Of a stretch of DNA of 27,278 nucleotides, positions 12,883-23,767 are shown piece after piece. The stretch is from Bdellovibrionales bacterium (GTDB lineage Bacteria; Bdellovibrionota; Bdellovibrionia; Bdellovibrionales; DASUEL01), in the NCBI GenBank assembly GCA_050250255.1, contig JBFWOZ010000039.1, positions 1 through 27,278 of the forward strand. The letters are read 5' to 3'. The position numbers and the translations under genes were made by a program. How positions within the stretch are numbered: the stretch's first letter is position 1; each line of letters opens with the position of its first letter. Below the pieces are notes generated by a model. It searched no databases. It was not told the DNA's origin and saw only the letters and a program-made list of their open reading frames with translations.

Positions 12883-15800
12883 TTATTCAAAAGAAGCGGT
12901 TTTTAAAACAGATCCACAGAATCTCGCAGACGAAGCTGGTGAAATGCTCGTCGTACTTGGGACAGCCGCCTTCACAATCGGAGCTTCTACGCTCGCCTTT
13001 TTCGTAAAACCCTCAGCGAGAGGAATATTGGATGGCAAAGAAACTTGATCAATCTGCGCCTTCTTAAGTCCTGCTACAATCTCGGCAATATCCGCAACCT
13101 GAGAAGGCGGCGGAACATTTGCTTTTAATTTTGAGTCTAAAGTTTGAGCTGCAGCAGATCTTGATGTAGGGGTCCCCTTCCACCAGCTGACAATACTTTG
13201 TAAGATAGAGCTCGCGGCACTTGACGTTTCAGGGGCACTTCGAACTGACTCAACAGGAATCAATTTTTTTCCCTTATAGAACTCTTCTAATTGCTCCGCG
13301 ACAAGATTTCCCTTTTCTGCAAGAAGATTTCCTAACGGAAGAAATATCTGTTCGGAATTGGCTACAAGAACTCTTCGCGCCAAGCCTTCTGCCTCTTGAA
13401 GTAGAGCACGAACTTCATTAAAGATTTTTTGTTTTTCCGCTTCAGGGATAAGACTGGCATCTATAACTTTCTTGCCGTCATGGTTCGTGACAACAATGTT
13501 CCCAAGTCCCTGAGAAAGGCCCCATGAGATCACGGCTTTTCTTGCTATCTCAGTCGCGCGATCGATATCGTTTTGCTTTCCGGCACCGATTACATCTCCA
13601 TCTATCACGATGGATTCTGCAACACCACCCGCAAGAAGAGTTGCCATTTCACGCACAACCACTTCCCGATTCACTCCAACTTGCTCCACTTCTTCGTGGC
13701 GAGCAAAGCCAGCAGCATGAATCCATTCATCACGGATCTTTACAACGGAAGGAATAATCGTGATCCGAATAGACTTTTGTTTGTCACCAAAGAGAACCCG
13801 CCTCACCACCTCATGTCCGGCTTCGTGATAAGCGGTCTTCACAAGTGCCATTGGAGGTCGTACGGCTTCTTTTTCGATCGTTTTTCCAAGCGAACTGAAA
13901 GTCAGAGATGGTTCACCTGCTCGAAGTACTTCGAACTCTGTTTTTAAAACGGTCTTCTCTTGGCGCGGTTCTTTCACTTCTTGAGTGCCCTTGTAGCGCA
14001 AAGCCACTTGGGCCTTGTTAGGAACACCTCTTAAAATATCTCGAAGCCGTTTTCTAAAATGATCATCTACGTAGTTTCCAATAGAGGCTCCCTGCTCTTC
14101 GATGCGAAAGCCTTCGCTCTCCACCATTTCCACAAGTTTGATAAAGTCTTGCTGGGAAGCAAAACGAACATCCCATCCCAAAATACCCTTATCCCATTTT
14201 AGACTTTCAAGAGCTCCCATCACTTTGCTCTGAGTCAGTTCTCTCACAGATTTAAAAGTATGAGGTCCAAAGAAATAAATATTGTCCATTCCGACACGTG
14301 CCAGAAAAGCAGCACCAAAACGCCCATTCAAAACCGCTCTTTTCCCTGCTTCATCTTGTGAGGCAAGCCTATAAATTTCCTCGTAAGCGGCCATTCTTTC
14401 TTCAAGAGGTACCGTTAAAGGAACAGACTCATAATTTTTTGTGCCCAAATTACCTGTTAAAATGAACAAACACTCTTCCATCGATCGATTGCCATCGATG
14501 AATGAAGCATGTCTGTCGCGGAGAAATTCGAAAAGATATCCTTCAATACCAGGGTAAGCGTTCACAAATTCGTCGAGAAGAAAAATACGACGGCCCTGAT
14601 CGAAGGCTTTTGCAAAAATGGATTTGATAATTTCTTTGCCTTCTTTAGATCCATACAGCACTTGTTTTGCGGCCTGTTCATCTTTAACATGATTGAAGTC
14701 AATTTTGAAAACAGCGTCAGGGTCATTAAGAAGAACACGACCAAGCGCACGGGCCAGTTCAGTTTTTCCCACTGAAGTCAGACCTAGAAACATCAGCACC
14801 TTCGCCTTACCGTGAAGGTTCCCCCTTCCTGGATCTTCCTGATCCAGGATCGCTCTCCCAAGAGCTTCGATGACCCCTGTGGCGCCGAAAACCTGCTTTT
14901 GCAGTTCCGGGACCATCGCTCGCAGTTCGGCAATTCGCTCTGGAGTGATGGGCTGTTTTTCTTTTAATTTTAAAGAACCACGTATAAGAACTTCTGACTG
15001 TTTCGCTGATGAACTTACAATCGCAGGACCTGTTCCACTGACCTCATTAATCAAGAGCGTTGAAGTTCCGTCGGCATTTACTCGTACAGAAAAAGTAATC
15101 GTTCGCTCTTCTGCTGATGGAAGAATGAGTTTTTTCGCAAGTGCGTCTGATAAAGCATTTAAAAAGAGAGATTTGATACGATTATCGAGAGGTCTTGCCA
15201 TCTCTTCTGCCTCGTATTGAAAACTTTGAATGTATTGTATTAGCTCACGCGTAACTACAAACTCTGTCTGATAAAATTTATTCGCATTGACCGGCGCTTG
15301 TACAATTTCTCTCAATGCTCTTCGTAAATTAAGACGAACAATTCTCTGCAAATCACGAGGAGACAAAGGCGCAAGCAAAATCATATCGTCGTCATAAACC
15401 CGATTCAATGTTTCGGGAGAGACCCGTGCATTTCCCTCTCGATCTTTAGAGCGACGAAGCATATCTTTTAAGAGTGTTTTGTTCTCAAATACCTTTTGGT
15501 ATTGAGCAAACATGCGTTCGTAAGGCATCGGATCACCAAAGCGGCTGCCATCGGCCTGGAGAGAGCTAATCAACTCAATGCCGTCGTTACTCGCAATAAA
15601 TTTTTCACCTCGATAAACTAACTCGTTCACGGAGCTTTGACCCGGACTTCTCAAAGGAACAATCCCCAATTCCAAAAATCTCTTAAGAAACGCATTTGAA
15701 CCTTCAGTCGTCCAATCATGAAACTCGTTCACGTACACAGCAGACTTTGCGGGATCCTTATATCCTTCAATCACCATTCCCGGTTTCCAATCAGGATTTT

Positions 15801-17127
15801 TATGGACAGACCAAGGTTGTTCACCCGGGCCAGCCCCCTCATTCCATCGCAGAAGATACTCTCCCCCACTATGAGTCACCACAAACCGAACAAGCCCAGG
15901 TATCTCTGCGGAACCTACGTAACCGGTTTCGGAACCTAAAAAAGCCCCTAGGTTTGCTTGGTTTTTTACTACAGGAACATGAAAAAGATCGTCGACATGG
16001 GCACCATCTCTTCCATTCACTGCATCCACGTGAGCTTTAGCAATTGTGTCTTTTCCAGTACCTGGCATTCCCATCAAGAAAATGTTGCGATTTTCTCGAA
16101 CACCTAAATTGCTTTGTCTTTGATAAGCATTGACGAGATTTCGAATCGCTTCTTTTTGCCCAATGACGTTTTTCAAAAGCCAACGGAGATAGCTCGAATT
16201 TTTCACAGGCGTGGCATTTAATTGTGTTGTCGCATCTACAAAAGAGGCTTTTTGAGATTGAACAAGCTCGGCGAGATCCGAACGAACAGAAGATCCCTCA
16301 AGAGAAGAAGACAATTCAAACTCTTCTCTTGGCACGTCCGTAGGTAAAGTTCCTAAAACCTTTGCTTCCGCTGTAACATCTCGACGTTCCTGAGAAAGTG
16401 ATTCAATCGTAATAAATGGATTTTCAGACGTTCCTGTGCGGATTTTGTGATCCGCAGCTCTTAAACCTACGGTTCCATCCTCTTGAATTAAAAAATACTT
16501 ATAAGGCATGCGAGCAGAATCAAAATCCTGGGCATTAAAGGTCCTAGGTACCATGACTCCATCTCCTTCACGCACAAAATAGGCATGAAGAAGTTTTTTG
16601 CCCTTCATTATCTCTTCTTTAAATAAAAAAACAGAAACGGCACGGGACGATTTAACGTCTGAAGCTGGTGATGAGTGAATGATCTCTGTCACTTCAATAC
16701 GGGGAAGTCGCGACGTGAGGTCTCGTGGAAGAGAGACAAAACGACTTTCGTTAACGATCAGGAATGGAAGCCCTCGAATAACAACAACTCCAAATGATCC
16801 CATACTCTGAAAAGGAATTGTGTCAATAAAACGTGTTTTTACAAAAGCAGGAATCTCATGAGTGACCGTGCGATCATTAACGACAACAGAATCTACAACT
16901 CCTTTATAGAGAGGGGTCTTATTTGAGCCCACCTCATAAGTGATTTGCATTTCACCCGTTGGGCTAACCGTGTAGACGATGGTTTGATCTGTATCGAGTT
17001 TGTGTTTACGAACGTAATTTCCAGAGGAATCGACTTGCGCAAAGACTTCTGAGAAATAAATCATCGCTACGAGAACACTTAAGATAAGGCGTACAGCGCG
17101 AGAACCATAAACTACTTTTTTGAACAC
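12883..17127 (-). CDS. Large multidomain protein: signal peptide, unknown N-terminal domain, two ClpB-D2-like AAA+ modules and an FtsH-type peptidase M41 domain
   Basis: AAGGAG SD precedes GTG 17130/17127. Module 1: VIGQKEAI, GMPGTGKD, GYVG, VYVNE, PETLNRV, MARPL. Module 2: QVFG, FLGLTSVGKTELARAL, FLLDE, FILTGNLG, FLARV. Protease: TAYHEAGH, ITIIP, LLAGGVAE, NDIDRAT, WGLS. Confidence 0.9.
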   Translation of the reverse strand: MFKKVVYGSRAVRLILSVLVAMIYFSEVFAQVDSSGNYVRKHKLDTDQTIVYTVSPTGEMQITYEVGSNKTPLYKGVVDSVVVNDRTVTHEIPAFVKTRFIDTIPFQSMGSFGVVVIRGLPFLIVNESRFVSLPRDLTSRLPRIEVTEIIHSSPASDVKSSRAVSVFLFKEEIMKGKKLLHAYFVREGDGVMVPRTFNAQDFDSARMPYKYFLIQEDGTVGLRAADHKIRTGTSENPFITIESLSQERRDVTAEAKVLGTLPTDVPREEFELSSSLEGSSVRSDLAELVQSQKASFVDATTQLNATPVKNSSYLRWLLKNVIGQKEAIRNLVNAYQRQSNLGVRENRNIFLMGMPGTGKDTIAKAHVDAVNGRDGAHVDDLFHVPVVKNQANLGAFLGSETGYVGSAEIPGLVRFVVTHSGGEYLLRWNEGAGPGEQPWSVHKNPDWKPGMVIEGYKDPAKSAVYVNEFHDWTTEGSNAFLKRFLELGIVPLRSPGQSSVNELVYRGEKFIASNDGIELISSLQADGSRFGDPMPYERMFAQYQKVFENKTLLKDMLRRSKDREGNARVSPETLNRVYDDDMILLAPLSPRDLQRIVRLNLRRALREIVQAPVNANKFYQTEFVVTRELIQYIQSFQYEAEEMARPLDNRIKSLFLNALSDALAKKLILPSAEERTITFSVRVNADGTSTLLINEVSGTGPAIVSSSAKQSEVLIRGSLKLKEKQPITPERIAELRAMVPELQKQVFGATGVIEALGRAILDQEDPGRGNLHGKAKVLMFLGLTSVGKTELARALGRVLLNDPDAVFKIDFNHVKDEQAAKQVLYGSKEGKEIIKSIFAKAFDQGRRIFLLDEFVNAYPGIEGYLFEFLRDRHASFIDGNRSMEECLFILTGNLGTKNYESVPLTVPLEERMAAYEEIYRLASQDEAGKRAVLNGRFGAAFLARVGMDNIYFFGPHTFKSVRELTQSKVMGALESLKWDKGILGWDVRFASQQDFIKLVEMVESEGFRIEEQGASIGNYVDDHFRKRLRDILRGVPNKAQVALRYKGTQEVKEPRQEKTVLKTEFEVLRAGEPSLTFSSLGKTIEKEAVRPPMALVKTAYHEAGHEVVRRVLFGDKQKSIRITIIPSVVKIRDEWIHAAGFARHEEVEQVGVNREVVVREMATLLAGGVAESIVIDGDVIGAGKQNDIDRATEIARKAVISWGLSQGLGNIVVTNHDGKKVIDASLIPEAEKQKIFNEVRALLQEAEGLARRVLVANSEQIFLPLGNLLAEKGNLVAEQLEEFYKGKKLIPVESVRSAPETSSAASSILQSIVSWWKGTPTSRSAAAQTLDSKLKANVPPPSQVADIAEIVAGLKKAQIDQVSLPSNIPLAEGFTKKASVEAPIVKAAVPSTTSISPASSARFCGSVLKTASFE

Positions 17128-17417
17128 CACAGGCTCCTTATTGCTACCCCCCTGTGACGACTTGAGGTTGTTTAGAACAGGTTCGCGCAACAAGCAAAAA
17201 AAGTTTTCAGATAAGAAGTCACATTAGATTTTTTTCTCACTCATTTCCCGAAATCGTTTCAGGCAGCTCTCATCATATTGATGAATTAATTTAATTAATG
17301 CTGCTCATAATTTGTCGTAAAACAAAATAGAAAAAAATTCACAACTTTGATTTCAACTGAGTTCAACTTGTGATCCGAGAATTAACTTTTTAAACCACAT
17401 GCTCACGTGAGGGTTTC

Positions 17418-18239
17418 ATGAAAATAACTATTCTCATACCAGCCATACTGCTGCAGTCCTTTGCTGTTATTGCAGCTCCGCACAGTCGTGCACAATTTTG
17501 CGAATTGAGAAAAAATCCAAGTTACTTTATTGAACAAGCACGTGATGTCACTAACCATTTAGCCTTCAGTAATTATGGTGGGCTTTTTAATGGAGGTGTT
17601 TGTTGGTGGCATTCTCTTTTTCAACGAGCTTCTCTTTATCTCGTTGTCTTTCGGCCTGAACTTTCAAAGCCAGCTCTCACTCAAGCCAAACTTTTGATCC
17701 ATTCTATCGCTGCGGGCAAGCGTGTTATTGAAATTCCTGGCTATTCCAACATGCTAGATTTCTCTAGAGACTATGAGTCCCTCATTCAGTCCAAACTGGA
17801 GGAGTGGCAAAAAATCGATGGGTTTTTAAAGTTTGCCTGGATTCAAGGCCTCTCAGGCTCTACATCAACTTCACCAGACATCATCAAACGAAACATCACT
17901 CAATTTCATACGCTCCTCACCACTCAATATGAAATTCCCTGGGTGATGCTCCAGCTAAAGGGAATCGCTTCACATTCGATTCTTCCAGTGGGAATTAACA
18001 CCACTTCCATCGGAGTCACCATTCCTCACCTGGATAGTAATTATATTGGAAGGGTTCTTCAGTTTTCATATGTATTTGGAGAGCGCTCGCTCTACACTTC
18101 TGGTTACGGCCATTTTGTTCCCTATTTAGGACGACACAGCGATTTTTCTTATTTTTATCGAGCAGCAAATGAATATTGCTCTTCTGAACCCAAAGTCGTT
18201 CCTCCAAGCGAAGAAGTCCTTAGCAATCATTTTGATTAA
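17418..18239 (+). CDS. Secreted hypothetical protein, candidate papain-like cysteine hydrolase
   Basis: Signal peptide MKITILIPAILLQSFAVIA. GGVCWWHS, ASHSIL and LDSNY occur in C-H-D order. GAGG before the ATG. Confidence 0.75.
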   Translation: MKITILIPAILLQSFAVIAAPHSRAQFCELRKNPSYFIEQARDVTNHLAFSNYGGLFNGGVCWWHSLFQRASLYLVVFRPELSKPALTQAKLLIHSIAAGKRVIEIPGYSNMLDFSRDYESLIQSKLEEWQKIDGFLKFAWIQGLSGSTSTSPDIIKRNITQFHTLLTTQYEIPWVMLQLKGIASHSILPVGINTTSIGVTIPHLDSNYIGRVLQFSYVFGERSLYTSGYGHFVPYLGRHSDFSYFYRAANEYCSSEPKVVPPSEEVLSNHFD

Positions 18240-21304: not shown

Positions 21305-21630
21305 TAAAAAATCTTAGAACATCGATTGAAATGGTCAAGAACCAAATGATTTCTGCTCAACTATTGGCTCGAAAAGCATCGACTTGTTGAGTAAATGCCG
21401 AGAATTTATTTGACTAGATTTGAAGGCATTTAAATTCTCTGCAATCCATCACTTTATAAATTTCTTTTGTTTTAAACCGTCTTTGAAAATGTATCGATCT
21501 CAAGCAATTTATAGAAGTTTAGACAGATTTTCAAAAGCGTACCTTTCAGTTTCATTTTCAACAAAACAGCATTTTTAAAACCCATGTTACGGGTATGGTC
21601 ACTTCAACTTTTTTCTTAGAGGAGAAATCC

Positions 21631-22434
21631 ATGACAAAACATATGCAAATTCACGAAAAAGCTCTCGAAGTGGCTAGCCGCTTTCGAAAGGCCGAGAGTG
21701 ATCTGATCGATATTCTTCAGCAAGTGGACGAGCATCGCGTGTACTTACATCTTCAATGTAAAAGTCTTTACGAATATGCGACCACAATTTTGAAACTGAG
21801 CGAAAGTACGGCCTACAACTTCATCACTGTCGCAAGAAAAGCAAAAGAAGTTCCCGCACTCAAACAAGCGATTCGGCTGGGAGAACTGACGGTTTCAAAT
21901 GCGAGAAAGATCACGCCGGTGCTTAATAAGTCTAATCAAGAAGAATGGCTTAAGATGGCTATCGAACTTCCACAGAAAAAACTCGAACAACAAGTTGCTA
22001 AAGTTTTACCGAAAGAAGCGACACCTGAACGATTAAAGTATGTGAGCGAAGATAGACTGGAATTGAAATTTGGTTTTTCTGAAGGCATCAGCCAAAAGTT
22101 AAAAAGAGTTCAAGAATTAGAACCCCAGCGCCAACAGAAAAAAGTAAACTTTGAGGAAACCTTAGAAGCTTTGCTTAATGTGTACTTAGAGAAGAAAGAT
22201 CCTGTGCGAAAAGCTGTAAAATTGATGCACAGAGCCCACCAGCCTGTCTTAAGACAGGTTCAACTGCGTGATCAGGGTCAATGCACATATGAAAATCAAG
22301 AAGGTATCCGTTGTACGGAAAGAAAATGGCTACACACGCATCATGTAATTCCTAAGAGTAAGGGCGGCCAAGATACTTTTGAAAATCTCACGACGCTTTG
22401 CTCGGGACACCACAGATTAACGCATTCGCATTAG
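21631..22434 (+). CDS. HNH endonuclease with DUF222-like helical N-terminal region
   Basis: GAGGAG SD before ATG 21631. C-terminal RDQGQC-x8-C...HHVIPKSKGG...NLTTLCSGHH is an HNH domain with zinc ligands. The N-terminus has VDEHRVY...SLYEYA...LKLSE. Confidence 0.9.
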   Translation: MTKHMQIHEKALEVASRFRKAESDLIDILQQVDEHRVYLHLQCKSLYEYATTILKLSESTAYNFITVARKAKEVPALKQAIRLGELTVSNARKITPVLNKSNQEEWLKMAIELPQKKLEQQVAKVLPKEATPERLKYVSEDRLELKFGFSEGISQKLKRVQELEPQRQQKKVNFEETLEALLNVYLEKKDPVRKAVKLMHRAHQPVLRQVQLRDQGQCTYENQEGIRCTERKWLHTHHVIPKSKGGQDTFENLTTLCSGHHRLTHSH

Positions 22435-22681: not shown

Positions 22682-23767
22682 TTAAGCAGCAGGTTTTTTC
22701 ATTTCAGGAGCAGGAGTTGTATCAGCTACTGCTGGCGCTGGCGCTGCGGCATCCGCAACAGGCACTGGAGCAGCGGCTGCGGCCGCCGCTGCCAAACTTG
22801 CAGCTGACGCTGCAGCTTGTTTGTAATCTTCCAAAATCGGAAAGTACTCGACACTGTTCAGTACGAGACTCGCGACGTTGGCGATCAGCTGGCAAAAACG
22901 AATGTCTTGATCGGCAAATTTTTTCGCTTTCGAATCCATGCGGGCTGACACAGCCCCGAACACTTCACCGTTAATGAAAATCGGTGCCACAACGATCGAG
23001 TTAAACGCAATTGTTTTCACAGTCTTTTTCATTTTGGCGAGCTCAGGATTGAAATCAATATTTTCGATGATCACAGTTTTTTCAGTGTTCACTGCGTGAG
23101 TGACCTCTGGATAACGAGCGAGATCGATCGTGATTTTTTTTACACGAACATCGTCACTTGAAGCGATCACATCCCCTTTTAACGTGTGCATGTCACAGCG
23201 AATGACAGAGGCTCGCACAGCTTTCATGGTGATCGCTAACATCTGTGTGATGTTGAAGAGACGCTCTTTAGGGTCACGCACTTCCGTGGCTTCACTCAAC
23301 ACAAGTTCCATCAAATGAAGTTGCAAATCCGAACCTTGTTGAATCTGTCGAGGTGCTTCCTCTTTGGCTGGTTGCGCGACGATACGTTTTGCCTGCATAT
23401 GGAACACGAGGCGATTGAAGATGTCTTCCACTTTGTAGGGCTTAACGACGTAGTCGACCGCACCCGCTGCAAAAACTCTTTTCACGTTAGCTGGGCTATT
23501 ATGACTGGAACTTACAAGAACACGTACTCCTGATTTACTCAAAATTGGATGTTGCTTAATGAGGCTTAAGAGTTCTGTTGCGGGACACTCTGGCATGAGA
23601 AGATCGATAAGAATAAAATCAGGAATCCAATTCGCAACAACGTTCTTTACTTGTTTACCACTGTTGATCACTTGGCATTCAAAGCCGTTTTCCGTGAGGA
23701 ATTCAGCAATTCGGCGCGCAACCAGGGTTTCCCGGTCAGCAATCATTACTTTTAAAGCATCAGCCAT
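22682..23767 (-). CDS. Response regulator receiver domain plus GAF domain, Ala/Pro-rich tail
   Basis: REC: KVMIAD, ILIDLLMP, VSS, GAVDYVVKP. GAF: LARYPEV, SIVVAPI...GEVFGAV, FADQDIRFCQLIAN. Confidence 0.88.
   Translation of the reverse strand: MADALKVMIADRETLVARRIAEFLTENGFECQVINSGKQVKNVVANWIPDFILIDLLMPECPATELLSLIKQHPILSKSGVRVLVSSSHNSPANVKRVFAAGAVDYVVKPYKVEDIFNRLVFHMQAKRIVAQPAKEEAPRQIQQGSDLQLHLMELVLSEATEVRDPKERLFNITQMLAITMKAVRASVIRCDMHTLKGDVIASSDDVRVKKITIDLARYPEVTHAVNTEKTVIIENIDFNPELAKMKKTVKTIAFNSIVVAPIFINGEVFGAVSARMDSKAKKFADQDIRFCQLIANVASLVLNSVEYFPILEDYKQAAASAASLAAAAAAAAPVPVADAAAPAPAVADTTPAPEMKKPAA

Follow-up and report, generated by a model that had tools for sequence, protein, structure and literature searches.

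A two-motor AAA+ protease of Bdellovibrionota with a predicted export signal and a cysteine tail

The stretch analysed here (27,278 nucleotides, hereafter the window) is contig JBFWOZ010000039.1 of a Bdellovibrionales bacterium (assembly GCA_050250255.1), in which a minus-strand open reading frame (ORF) at 12883-17193, stop-free inside, encodes an unusual predicted ATP-dependent protease. The likely start is a GTG at 17127, giving a product of 1414 aa, the same length as the database call (P0002), and the gene is single-copy in its genome (Table 1). A preliminary description made from the sequence had recognised two AAA+ modules and a complete M41 domain in one ORF, and this holds: the ORF is intact, Peptidase_M41 is matched in Pfam (E 1.8e-22), and the motifs are found at VIGQ 16167, QVFG 14895, HEAGH 13827-13813, LLAGGVAE 13638, NDIDRAT 13572 and WGLS 13524, as described. 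The Arg finger that it had called PEFLNR-like reads ETLNR and AFLAR here. The AAA_2 plus ClpB_D2-small pair that it had expected twice from Pfam did not appear: only module 2 gave an AAA_2 match (E 1.5e-6), module 1 having diverged beyond the reach of Pfam, and the scan of the query returned no ClpB_D2-small, Clp_N or middle-domain match. The FtsH and ClpB models of NCBIfam match the query far under their cut-offs.

Table 1. Features of the protease gene, with positions numbered along the window.
Feature	Position	Strand	Basis or content
Whole gene	12883..17127	-	Signal peptide, variable N domain, two ClpB-D2-type AAA+ modules, M41 protease, linker, cysteine tail
Shine-Dalgarno-like AAGGAG, 6 nt upstream of GTG 17127	17134..17139	-	Sequence
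Predicted Sec/signal peptidase I (SPase I) signal peptide: basic n-region, hydrophobic core, VFA ahead of predicted cut	17038..17127	-	Hydropathy and family anatomy, heuristic
Variable N-terminal domain, predicted beta-rich (low confidence)	16201..17037	-	Searches and model
AAA+ module 1, ClpB-D2 type	15136..16200	-	Motifs, profile-profile comparison, model
Module 1 Walker A GTGKD	16071-16048	-	Motif
Module 1 GYVG pore loop	15936-15910	-	Motif
Module 1 Walker B VNE	15738-15721	-	Motif
Module 1 Arg finger	15414-15397	-	Motif
Module 1 sensor-2 ARP	15204-15190	-	Motif
Predicted three-strand beta linker after module 1	14983..15105	-	Model
AAA+ module 2, ClpB-D2 type	14032..14943	-	Pfam, motifs, profile-profile comparison, structure matches
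Module 2 canonical Walker A	14784-14761	-	Motif
Module 2 Walker B DE	14583-14566	-	Motif
Module 2 sensor-1 TGN	14460-14449	-	Motif
Module 2 Arg finger	14307-14293	-	Motif
Module 2 sensor-2 position, Ala	14097-14083	-	Motif
Predicted three-strand beta linker, module 2 to protease	13879..14010	-	Model
M41 zinc protease domain	13276..13854	-	Pfam, motifs, alignment, structure match
HEAGH of M41	13827-13813	-	Motif
Third zinc ligand Asp within NDIDRAT	13572-13552	-	Motif
Partly conserved P-x-x-V-A-D-I helix in post-protease linker	13060..13113	-	Model and family comparison
C-terminal one-cysteine tail	12904..12918	-	Family consensus C-x-x-L-L/F

Both modules are of the ClpB-D2 type and not of the D1 or FtsH type, in agreement with the preliminary description. 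In profile-profile comparisons with hhalign, ClpD2 was matched by module 1 with a probability of 99.6% over 264 columns and by module 2 with 99.8% over 263 columns, whereas ClpD1 and FtsH aligned over only 46-104 columns, with E 5.6e-7 or worse. Besides, the FtsH profile gave 2 and 0 bits for modules 1 and 2, and the ClpD1 profile 1 and -1. In a tree of 87 modules, a quick search with SH-like approximate likelihood-ratio (SH-aLRT) support only, as is the M41 tree below, FtsH and D1 fell on one side of a branch (support 95) and both modules on the other, with ClpD2, ClpX and Lon. Module 1 clustered loosely with the last module of a triple-motor form presented below (support 93). A model of residues 332-1436 was obtained with a predicted local distance difference test (pLDDT) score of 82.9 and a predicted template modelling (pTM) score of 0.61; its top Foldseek matches are ClpC and ClpB, and VIA structure matches include Skd3 (Z 25.8), nucleotide-binding domain 2 (NBD2) of ClpB (Z 23.4) and the FtsH protease domain 2di4 (Z 16.5). 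The three-strand linker predicted after each module would fit a duplicated unit.

The two modules were then searched for in 401 genomes of the phylum. Matches were found in 34 of them, own genome included; one (G216) is a cross-match from the triple-motor sister group, leaving 32 of the 400 other genomes. The 30 loci that were fetched comprise 27 with a full-length ORF and 3 fragments. A pattern scan of a species-representative collection gave 31 loci, 30 of them spanning motor and protease and the 31st mainly M41; those 30 are titled as Bdellovibrionota taxa in 29 cases and as 'bacterium' in one, and these relatives also point to the phylum of the host. In the ESM Atlas the family is a 68-member cluster titled 'hypothetical protein'. 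From the best 150 matches listed by a profile search, a top group of 93 was taken and 10 proteins under 1230 aa were dropped, yielding 83 full-length members, query included, which are 50%-identity representatives with a common layout and on which the residue counts are based. In the catalytic domains the members have a median of 31-34% identical residues with the query, in the N domain 4%. A common helical N domain occurs in 51/83 two-motor proteins and in 10 of the 22 three-motor proteins tested. The query is without it: its own N domain had no Atlas match and no shorter homologue among 2624 candidates, its best local family match had E 0.017, and its single-sequence model reached a pLDDT of 42.6.

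Across the family, the zinc site of M41 (H, E and H of HExxH and the Asp ligand) is invariant (83/83), as are the Walker A Lys, Walker B Glu, sensor-1 Asn and Arg finger of module 2 (83/83). Module 1 keeps a G-S-x-x-G-Y-V-G-S pore loop, with Tyr in 53/83 and Phe in 13/83 members, an Arg finger in 68/83 and a sensor-2 Arg in 69/83. In 58/83, an Asp replacing the Walker A Thr is paired with Asn-Glu in Walker B, a double swap that may preserve Mg-ATP binding; the site is degenerate in other members, such as P0003. The canonical D2 features are divided between the modules, GYVG and the sensor-2 Arg being in module 1 and the canonical Walker motifs in module 2, and from these motifs it is proposed that module 1 grips the substrate while module 2 drives it. 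The preliminary description, which took it for a self-contained protease, had missed the signal peptide and the cysteine tail, with which the location of the protein becomes the main puzzle, as well as the non-canonical ATP site of module 1 and a triple-motor sister subfamily.

A further 26 proteins of more than 1000 aa were retrieved, with three Walker A motifs in 20/26 and HExGH in 25/26. They point to a sister subfamily with the order D1-D2-D2-M41, in which the first module falls with ClpD1 (support 99), the second and third with D2. This triple-motor subfamily occurs in 40/401 genomes, 3 of which carry both subfamilies; it has the signal peptide and cysteine tail too, with D1 kept and Walker A motifs mostly canonical. 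The M41 domains of both subfamilies were separated from 21 FtsH-type domains with a branch support of 99. The simplest history would be a single D1-D2-D2-M41 fusion with later loss of D1: a D2 duplication in a ClpB-like D1-D2 protein and its fusion to M41 may have come before the two-motor subfamily lost D1. Two triple-motor variants were also seen, one of 2327 aa with an FGE-sulfatase-like domain at its C-terminal end (P0238) and a three-motor protein whose N-terminus is hydrophobic and in which the M41 motif is lacking (P0253). Single-motor Clp-D2/M41 fusions of 580-720 aa are found in phage and Bacteroidota clusters of the ESM Atlas (score 0.90-0.91). In viral contigs, only partial, M41-centred matches were obtained among 80 loci kept of 84, and 17 of 18 non-redundant viral-contig ORFs inspected had an FtsH-type Walker A. 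In the open-access literature searched, no description of the architecture or of the tail was found, nor of the single-D2/M41 and triple-motor forms; in an Omnitrophota-centred preprint on giant genes (10.1101/2023.11.21.568195), AAA domains appear only in a legend on giant proteins. The suggestion of an undescribed system is supported by this search, but the gene belongs to a phylum-level family, and with single-motor fusions in phages and Bacteroidota the fusion as such is less singular than was claimed.

The sole strongly hydrophobic stretch of the query is its N-terminus, as judged by hydropathy. By a heuristic of our own, a hydrophobic core was detected at this place in 70/83 members vs 8/118 Clp/FtsH controls. 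Among those 70, a basic n-region was seen in 64, an AxA-like site in 57 and a neutral or acidic stretch after the core in 57, while a lipobox was seen in none and a twin-Arg-like motif in one. The query and most of its relatives are thus predicted to fit the anatomy of Sec/SPase I substrates. A second hydrophobic helix was flagged in only 3/83 members, and this together with the signal anatomy implies that the motors would leave the cytoplasm. The invariance of the module 2 catalytic residues indicates that ATP use is under selection, although the periplasm is described as devoid of ATP (PMC7053576).

The other end of the chain carries a tail with the family consensus C-x-x-L-L/F, mostly 4-12 residues from the C-terminal end. 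A Cys lies within the last 22 residues in 79/83 members and within the last 14 in 75/83 (vs 1/118 controls), and no other mature Cys is present in 40/83. Four members are exceptions: in one, 23 residues separate the motif from the end, two stop within or just after M41, and P0202, the only apparently complete member without the tail, carries the motif directly behind its signal peptide, as its sole mature Cys. With a matrix trained on the family (internal null 0.3-0.4%), the tail was strongly enriched in the own genome on signal-peptide ORFs (17/783 vs 6/1945 others, query included). With the plain pattern, 10 of the 14 signal-peptide bearers have no other Cys. Pfam gave no match for 11 of 18 tail candidates scanned, and two tail-bearing proteins had no relatives in 150 genomes of the order. 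Among the own-genome bearers are two M28 peptidases, an ABC1 kinase, an amidoligase/SelO-like protein and an M48-plus-UbiB-like kinase. The tail also occurs on unrelated ATP-using enzymes with a signal peptide, the ABC1-type kinases P0270-P0272, L082 and L081 (the last with its N-terminus cut); it is present in 4/6 ABC1-type relatives (P0271, P0272, L081, L082) and missing from a housekeeping-type UbiB (L083). In the M48-plus-UbiB-kinase family it is found on 8/11 complete C-termini, own copy included.

Several of these bearers deserve a description of their own. L062 (G000 C14:40592-45427, minus strand) is a 1612-aa signal-peptide protein with an M48-like peptidase, a UbiB-like kinase and the cysteine tail, and its relatives (L176-L189) occur in 12/150 genomes of the order. 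L065 (G000 C6:13304-15418, minus strand) is an ABC1/UbiB-type kinase with signal peptide and tail; unlike it, an ABC1-like ORF at 1-1128 of the window (minus strand) has by eye no evident signal peptide. L064 (G000 C50:4761-10664, plus strand) is a cluster of three tail-bearing genes, encoding an amidoligase_2 plus SelO-like protein and two tandem M28 peptidases, and had no relatives in the 150 order genomes.

Enzyme delivery to prey by Bdellovibrionota has been called largely unexplored (PMC12622784). The reading that we favour, with middling confidence, is that the protein would be exported and form rings that unfold and degrade prey proteins at the expense of ATP, in an ATP-containing compartment outside the predator cytoplasm, probably in the prey. 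It would be exported by Sec and cleaved after VFA, in keeping with the family-wide anatomy; the cysteine tail would tether it or route it on via a secretin system or a predator-prey junction. By analogy with Clp and FtsH, six chains would stack into three rings, made up of module 1 at the top, module 2 below it and the protease. The variable N domain may pick the substrate, which module 1 would grip by its GYVG loop, module 2 would provide most of the ATP hydrolysis, and the M41 site would cut. More tentatively, and with clearly less than even confidence, the tail could be a portable tag with a single Cys (C-x-x-L-L/F), placed at one or the other end of the mature protein, that routes Sec-exported, ATP-needing enzymes into the prey cytoplasm in Bdellovibrionota. 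As to possible routes, the genome has four secretin genes and several T2SSF-domain genes, which are common in the phylum and prove no route, and the epibiotic junction has been modelled as an access to the prey cytoplasm (PMC12428579). One title in the reference list of PMC13689555 names an ATP transport system of intracellular B. bacteriovorus. A search of the own genome for an ATP/ADP translocase (TLC) gave no match, positive controls likewise giving none, and one for VipB of the type VI secretion system gave none either. The genome also has an ordinary FtsH, ClpB, ClpA-like and ClpX-like genes and three Lon-like genes; as these are retained, the fusion protease is regarded as an accessory enzyme.

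A number of observations weigh against the favoured reading. Some concern the enzyme: the sensor-2 position of module 2 is Ala in 62/83 members and Arg in only 15/83, a conserved aromatic residue is absent from the pore-loop region of module 2 among the 83, and the catalytic residues of module 1 differ in about a quarter of them. The signal-peptide calls come from our heuristic and not from SignalP, and 13/83 members fail it, several of which look like mis-called starts. As for the tail, its enrichment with the plain pattern is modest (14/386 vs 13/956, odds ratio 2.7, p 0.016, query excluded); it is also carried by M28 peptidases, which need no ATP, and it is missing from the signal-bearing ABC1 relatives P0273 and P0274 and from 3/11 M48-kinase C-termini. 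The two- and three-motor subfamilies together occur in only 69/400 genomes, and a search of 26 genomes of genus g9, which is probably Bdellovibrio, found neither; with such a patchy spread and this absence, the protease is not a core predation factor. Among 31 loci and 266 ORFs, no conserved neighbour pointing to a delivery system was seen: none is common to more than 5 of the 31 loci, and the recurrent ones are generic or come from close kin. Finally, the hosts are uncultured.

A first alternative is a resident quality-control protease in the periplasm or on the surface of the predator, held there by its Cys tail and either fed by a local nucleotide pool or carrying AAA rings that serve mostly as a gated scaffold. 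A Sec signal by itself reaches the periplasm only, the tail is shared with ATP-independent M28 peptidases, and the ATP site of module 1 is non-canonical (K-D with N-E in 58/83). This nevertheless appears unlikely, the four invariant catalytic residues of module 2 (83/83) being hard to explain where ATP is lacking (PMC7053576), and the patchy spread and the hypervariable N domain (4% median identity) are more in keeping with conflict than with housekeeping. The ATP paradox would disappear altogether if the N-terminal segment were an uncleaved anchor or unused, with motors and protease remaining in the cytoplasm as an accessory FtsH-like enzyme, and both the single-motor Clp-D2/M41 clusters of phages and Bacteroidota and the 13/83 members in which no signal was seen speak for it. 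However, the basic n-region, the neutral or acidic stretch after the core (57/70) and the AxA-like sites predict an N-in, C-out orientation followed by cleavage, and no second helix returns the chain, which makes this explanation rather improbable.

It is likewise rather improbable that the protein is an extracytoplasmic threading motor at the predator-prey interface whose M41 ring trims the cargo, like Plasmodium HSP101 in the PTEX translocon or plastid Ycf2-FtsHi. Structural matches to PTEX (Z 23.0, root-mean-square deviation (rmsd) 15.5, 537 aligned) and to Orf2971-FtsHi (Z 17.7, rmsd 7.8, 375 aligned) suggest such a role, and two or three stacked rings are more than FtsH needs. These matches, however, reflect common AAA+ folds only, the zinc site is invariant, unlike that of FtsHi subunits, which have lost it, and no conserved channel gene lies nearby. 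As the genome is a 95-contig assembly, an assembly chimera or a chance in-frame join of clp and ftsH was considered as well; its probability is negligible, since dozens of independent genomes show the same domain order at roughly 30% identity, and intact copies of the ordinary ftsH and clpB genes lie elsewhere, on other contigs of the genome. An assembly chimera, which the preliminary description had named as a risk, is ruled out by the independent full-length homologues.

Textbooks present the AAA+ proteases of bacteria as five classes, all of which face the cytoplasm, and the periplasm as having no ATP. A conserved family in which an intact ATP motor follows a predicted export signal departs from this picture in either case, whether the protein is delivered into prey or uses ATP outside the cytoplasm. 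Should delivery by the tag be true, the protein would be a secreted AAA+ protease effector run on the ATP of its victim, a class for which no bacterial report was found, and the cargo of the tag would comprise multi-ring AAA+ proteases together with ABC1/UbiB-type and SelO-like enzymes. The cysteine tail offers a concrete, mutable handle on this question of prey delivery. Besides, the split between grip (module 1) and hydrolysis (module 2), together with the paired Asp/Asn swap, provides a natural test of how a two-ring motor shares its work.

The remainder of the window was surveyed as well. The GC content over the protease gene (42-48%) is similar to that of the remainder; a promoter/terminator scan stayed below shuffle expectation, and a tRNA scan found none. 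At 17418-18239 (plus strand) lies a divergent 273-aa signal-peptide protein whose upstream region is common with that of the protease gene; it has no Pfam or NCBIfam match and is not conserved beside relatives of the protease gene. A 279-aa protein with a C-terminal HNH domain (21595-22434, plus strand), in the lowest-GC kilobase of the window and possibly mobile, has a pair of short unknown ORFs on one side and a response regulator on the other, and a response regulator receiver fused to GAF, with an Ala/Pro-rich tail, is encoded at 22682-23767 (minus strand).

The layout found here fits no Clp, Lon, HslUV or FtsH class, as the preliminary description had stated. With FtsH, Yme1 and AFG3L2 (TIGR01241), the protein has in common an M41 domain with HExxH and Asp ligand and the union of motor and protease in one chain. 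Its M41 aligns to FtsH 7vhp (E 7e-14), and the model superposes on the protease domain 2di4 (Z 16.5, rmsd 2.4, 169 residues). However, it has two modules outside the classical clade where FtsH has one classical AAA module, it shows by hydropathy none of the paired membrane helices that keep the FtsH motor cytoplasmic, and it scores 91 bits against a cut-off of 600 bits. Both modules match the D2 ring of class 1 Hsp100 proteins (ClpA, ClpB, ClpC and Hsp104; ClpB NBD2 vs model: Z 23.4, rmsd 3.9, 289 aligned), but D1 is absent, Pfam matches neither Clp_N nor the middle domain, D2 is doubled, a signal peptide is present and the protease is fused instead of being supplied by ClpP. It differs from Lon in that its protease is M41 and not Ser-Lys, the NCBIfam LonB match spanning only 52 residues around Walker A. 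A D2-type fold is also shared with Skd3/human CLPB (Z 25.8, rmsd 3.9, 324 aligned) and TorsinA (Z 17.6, rmsd 3.9, 247 aligned). Skd3, TorsinA and Plasmodium HSP101 are Clp-type motors outside the cytosol that likewise act behind a targeting signal, but their compartments contain ATP, unlike the bacterial periplasm; they are eukaryotic and have no fused protease. The single-D2/M41 fusions of phages and Bacteroidota resemble the protein in having a D2-type motor followed directly by M41. Judged by its sequence, the protein would work like an AAA+ protease while being a member of neither FtsH nor ClpA/B/C.

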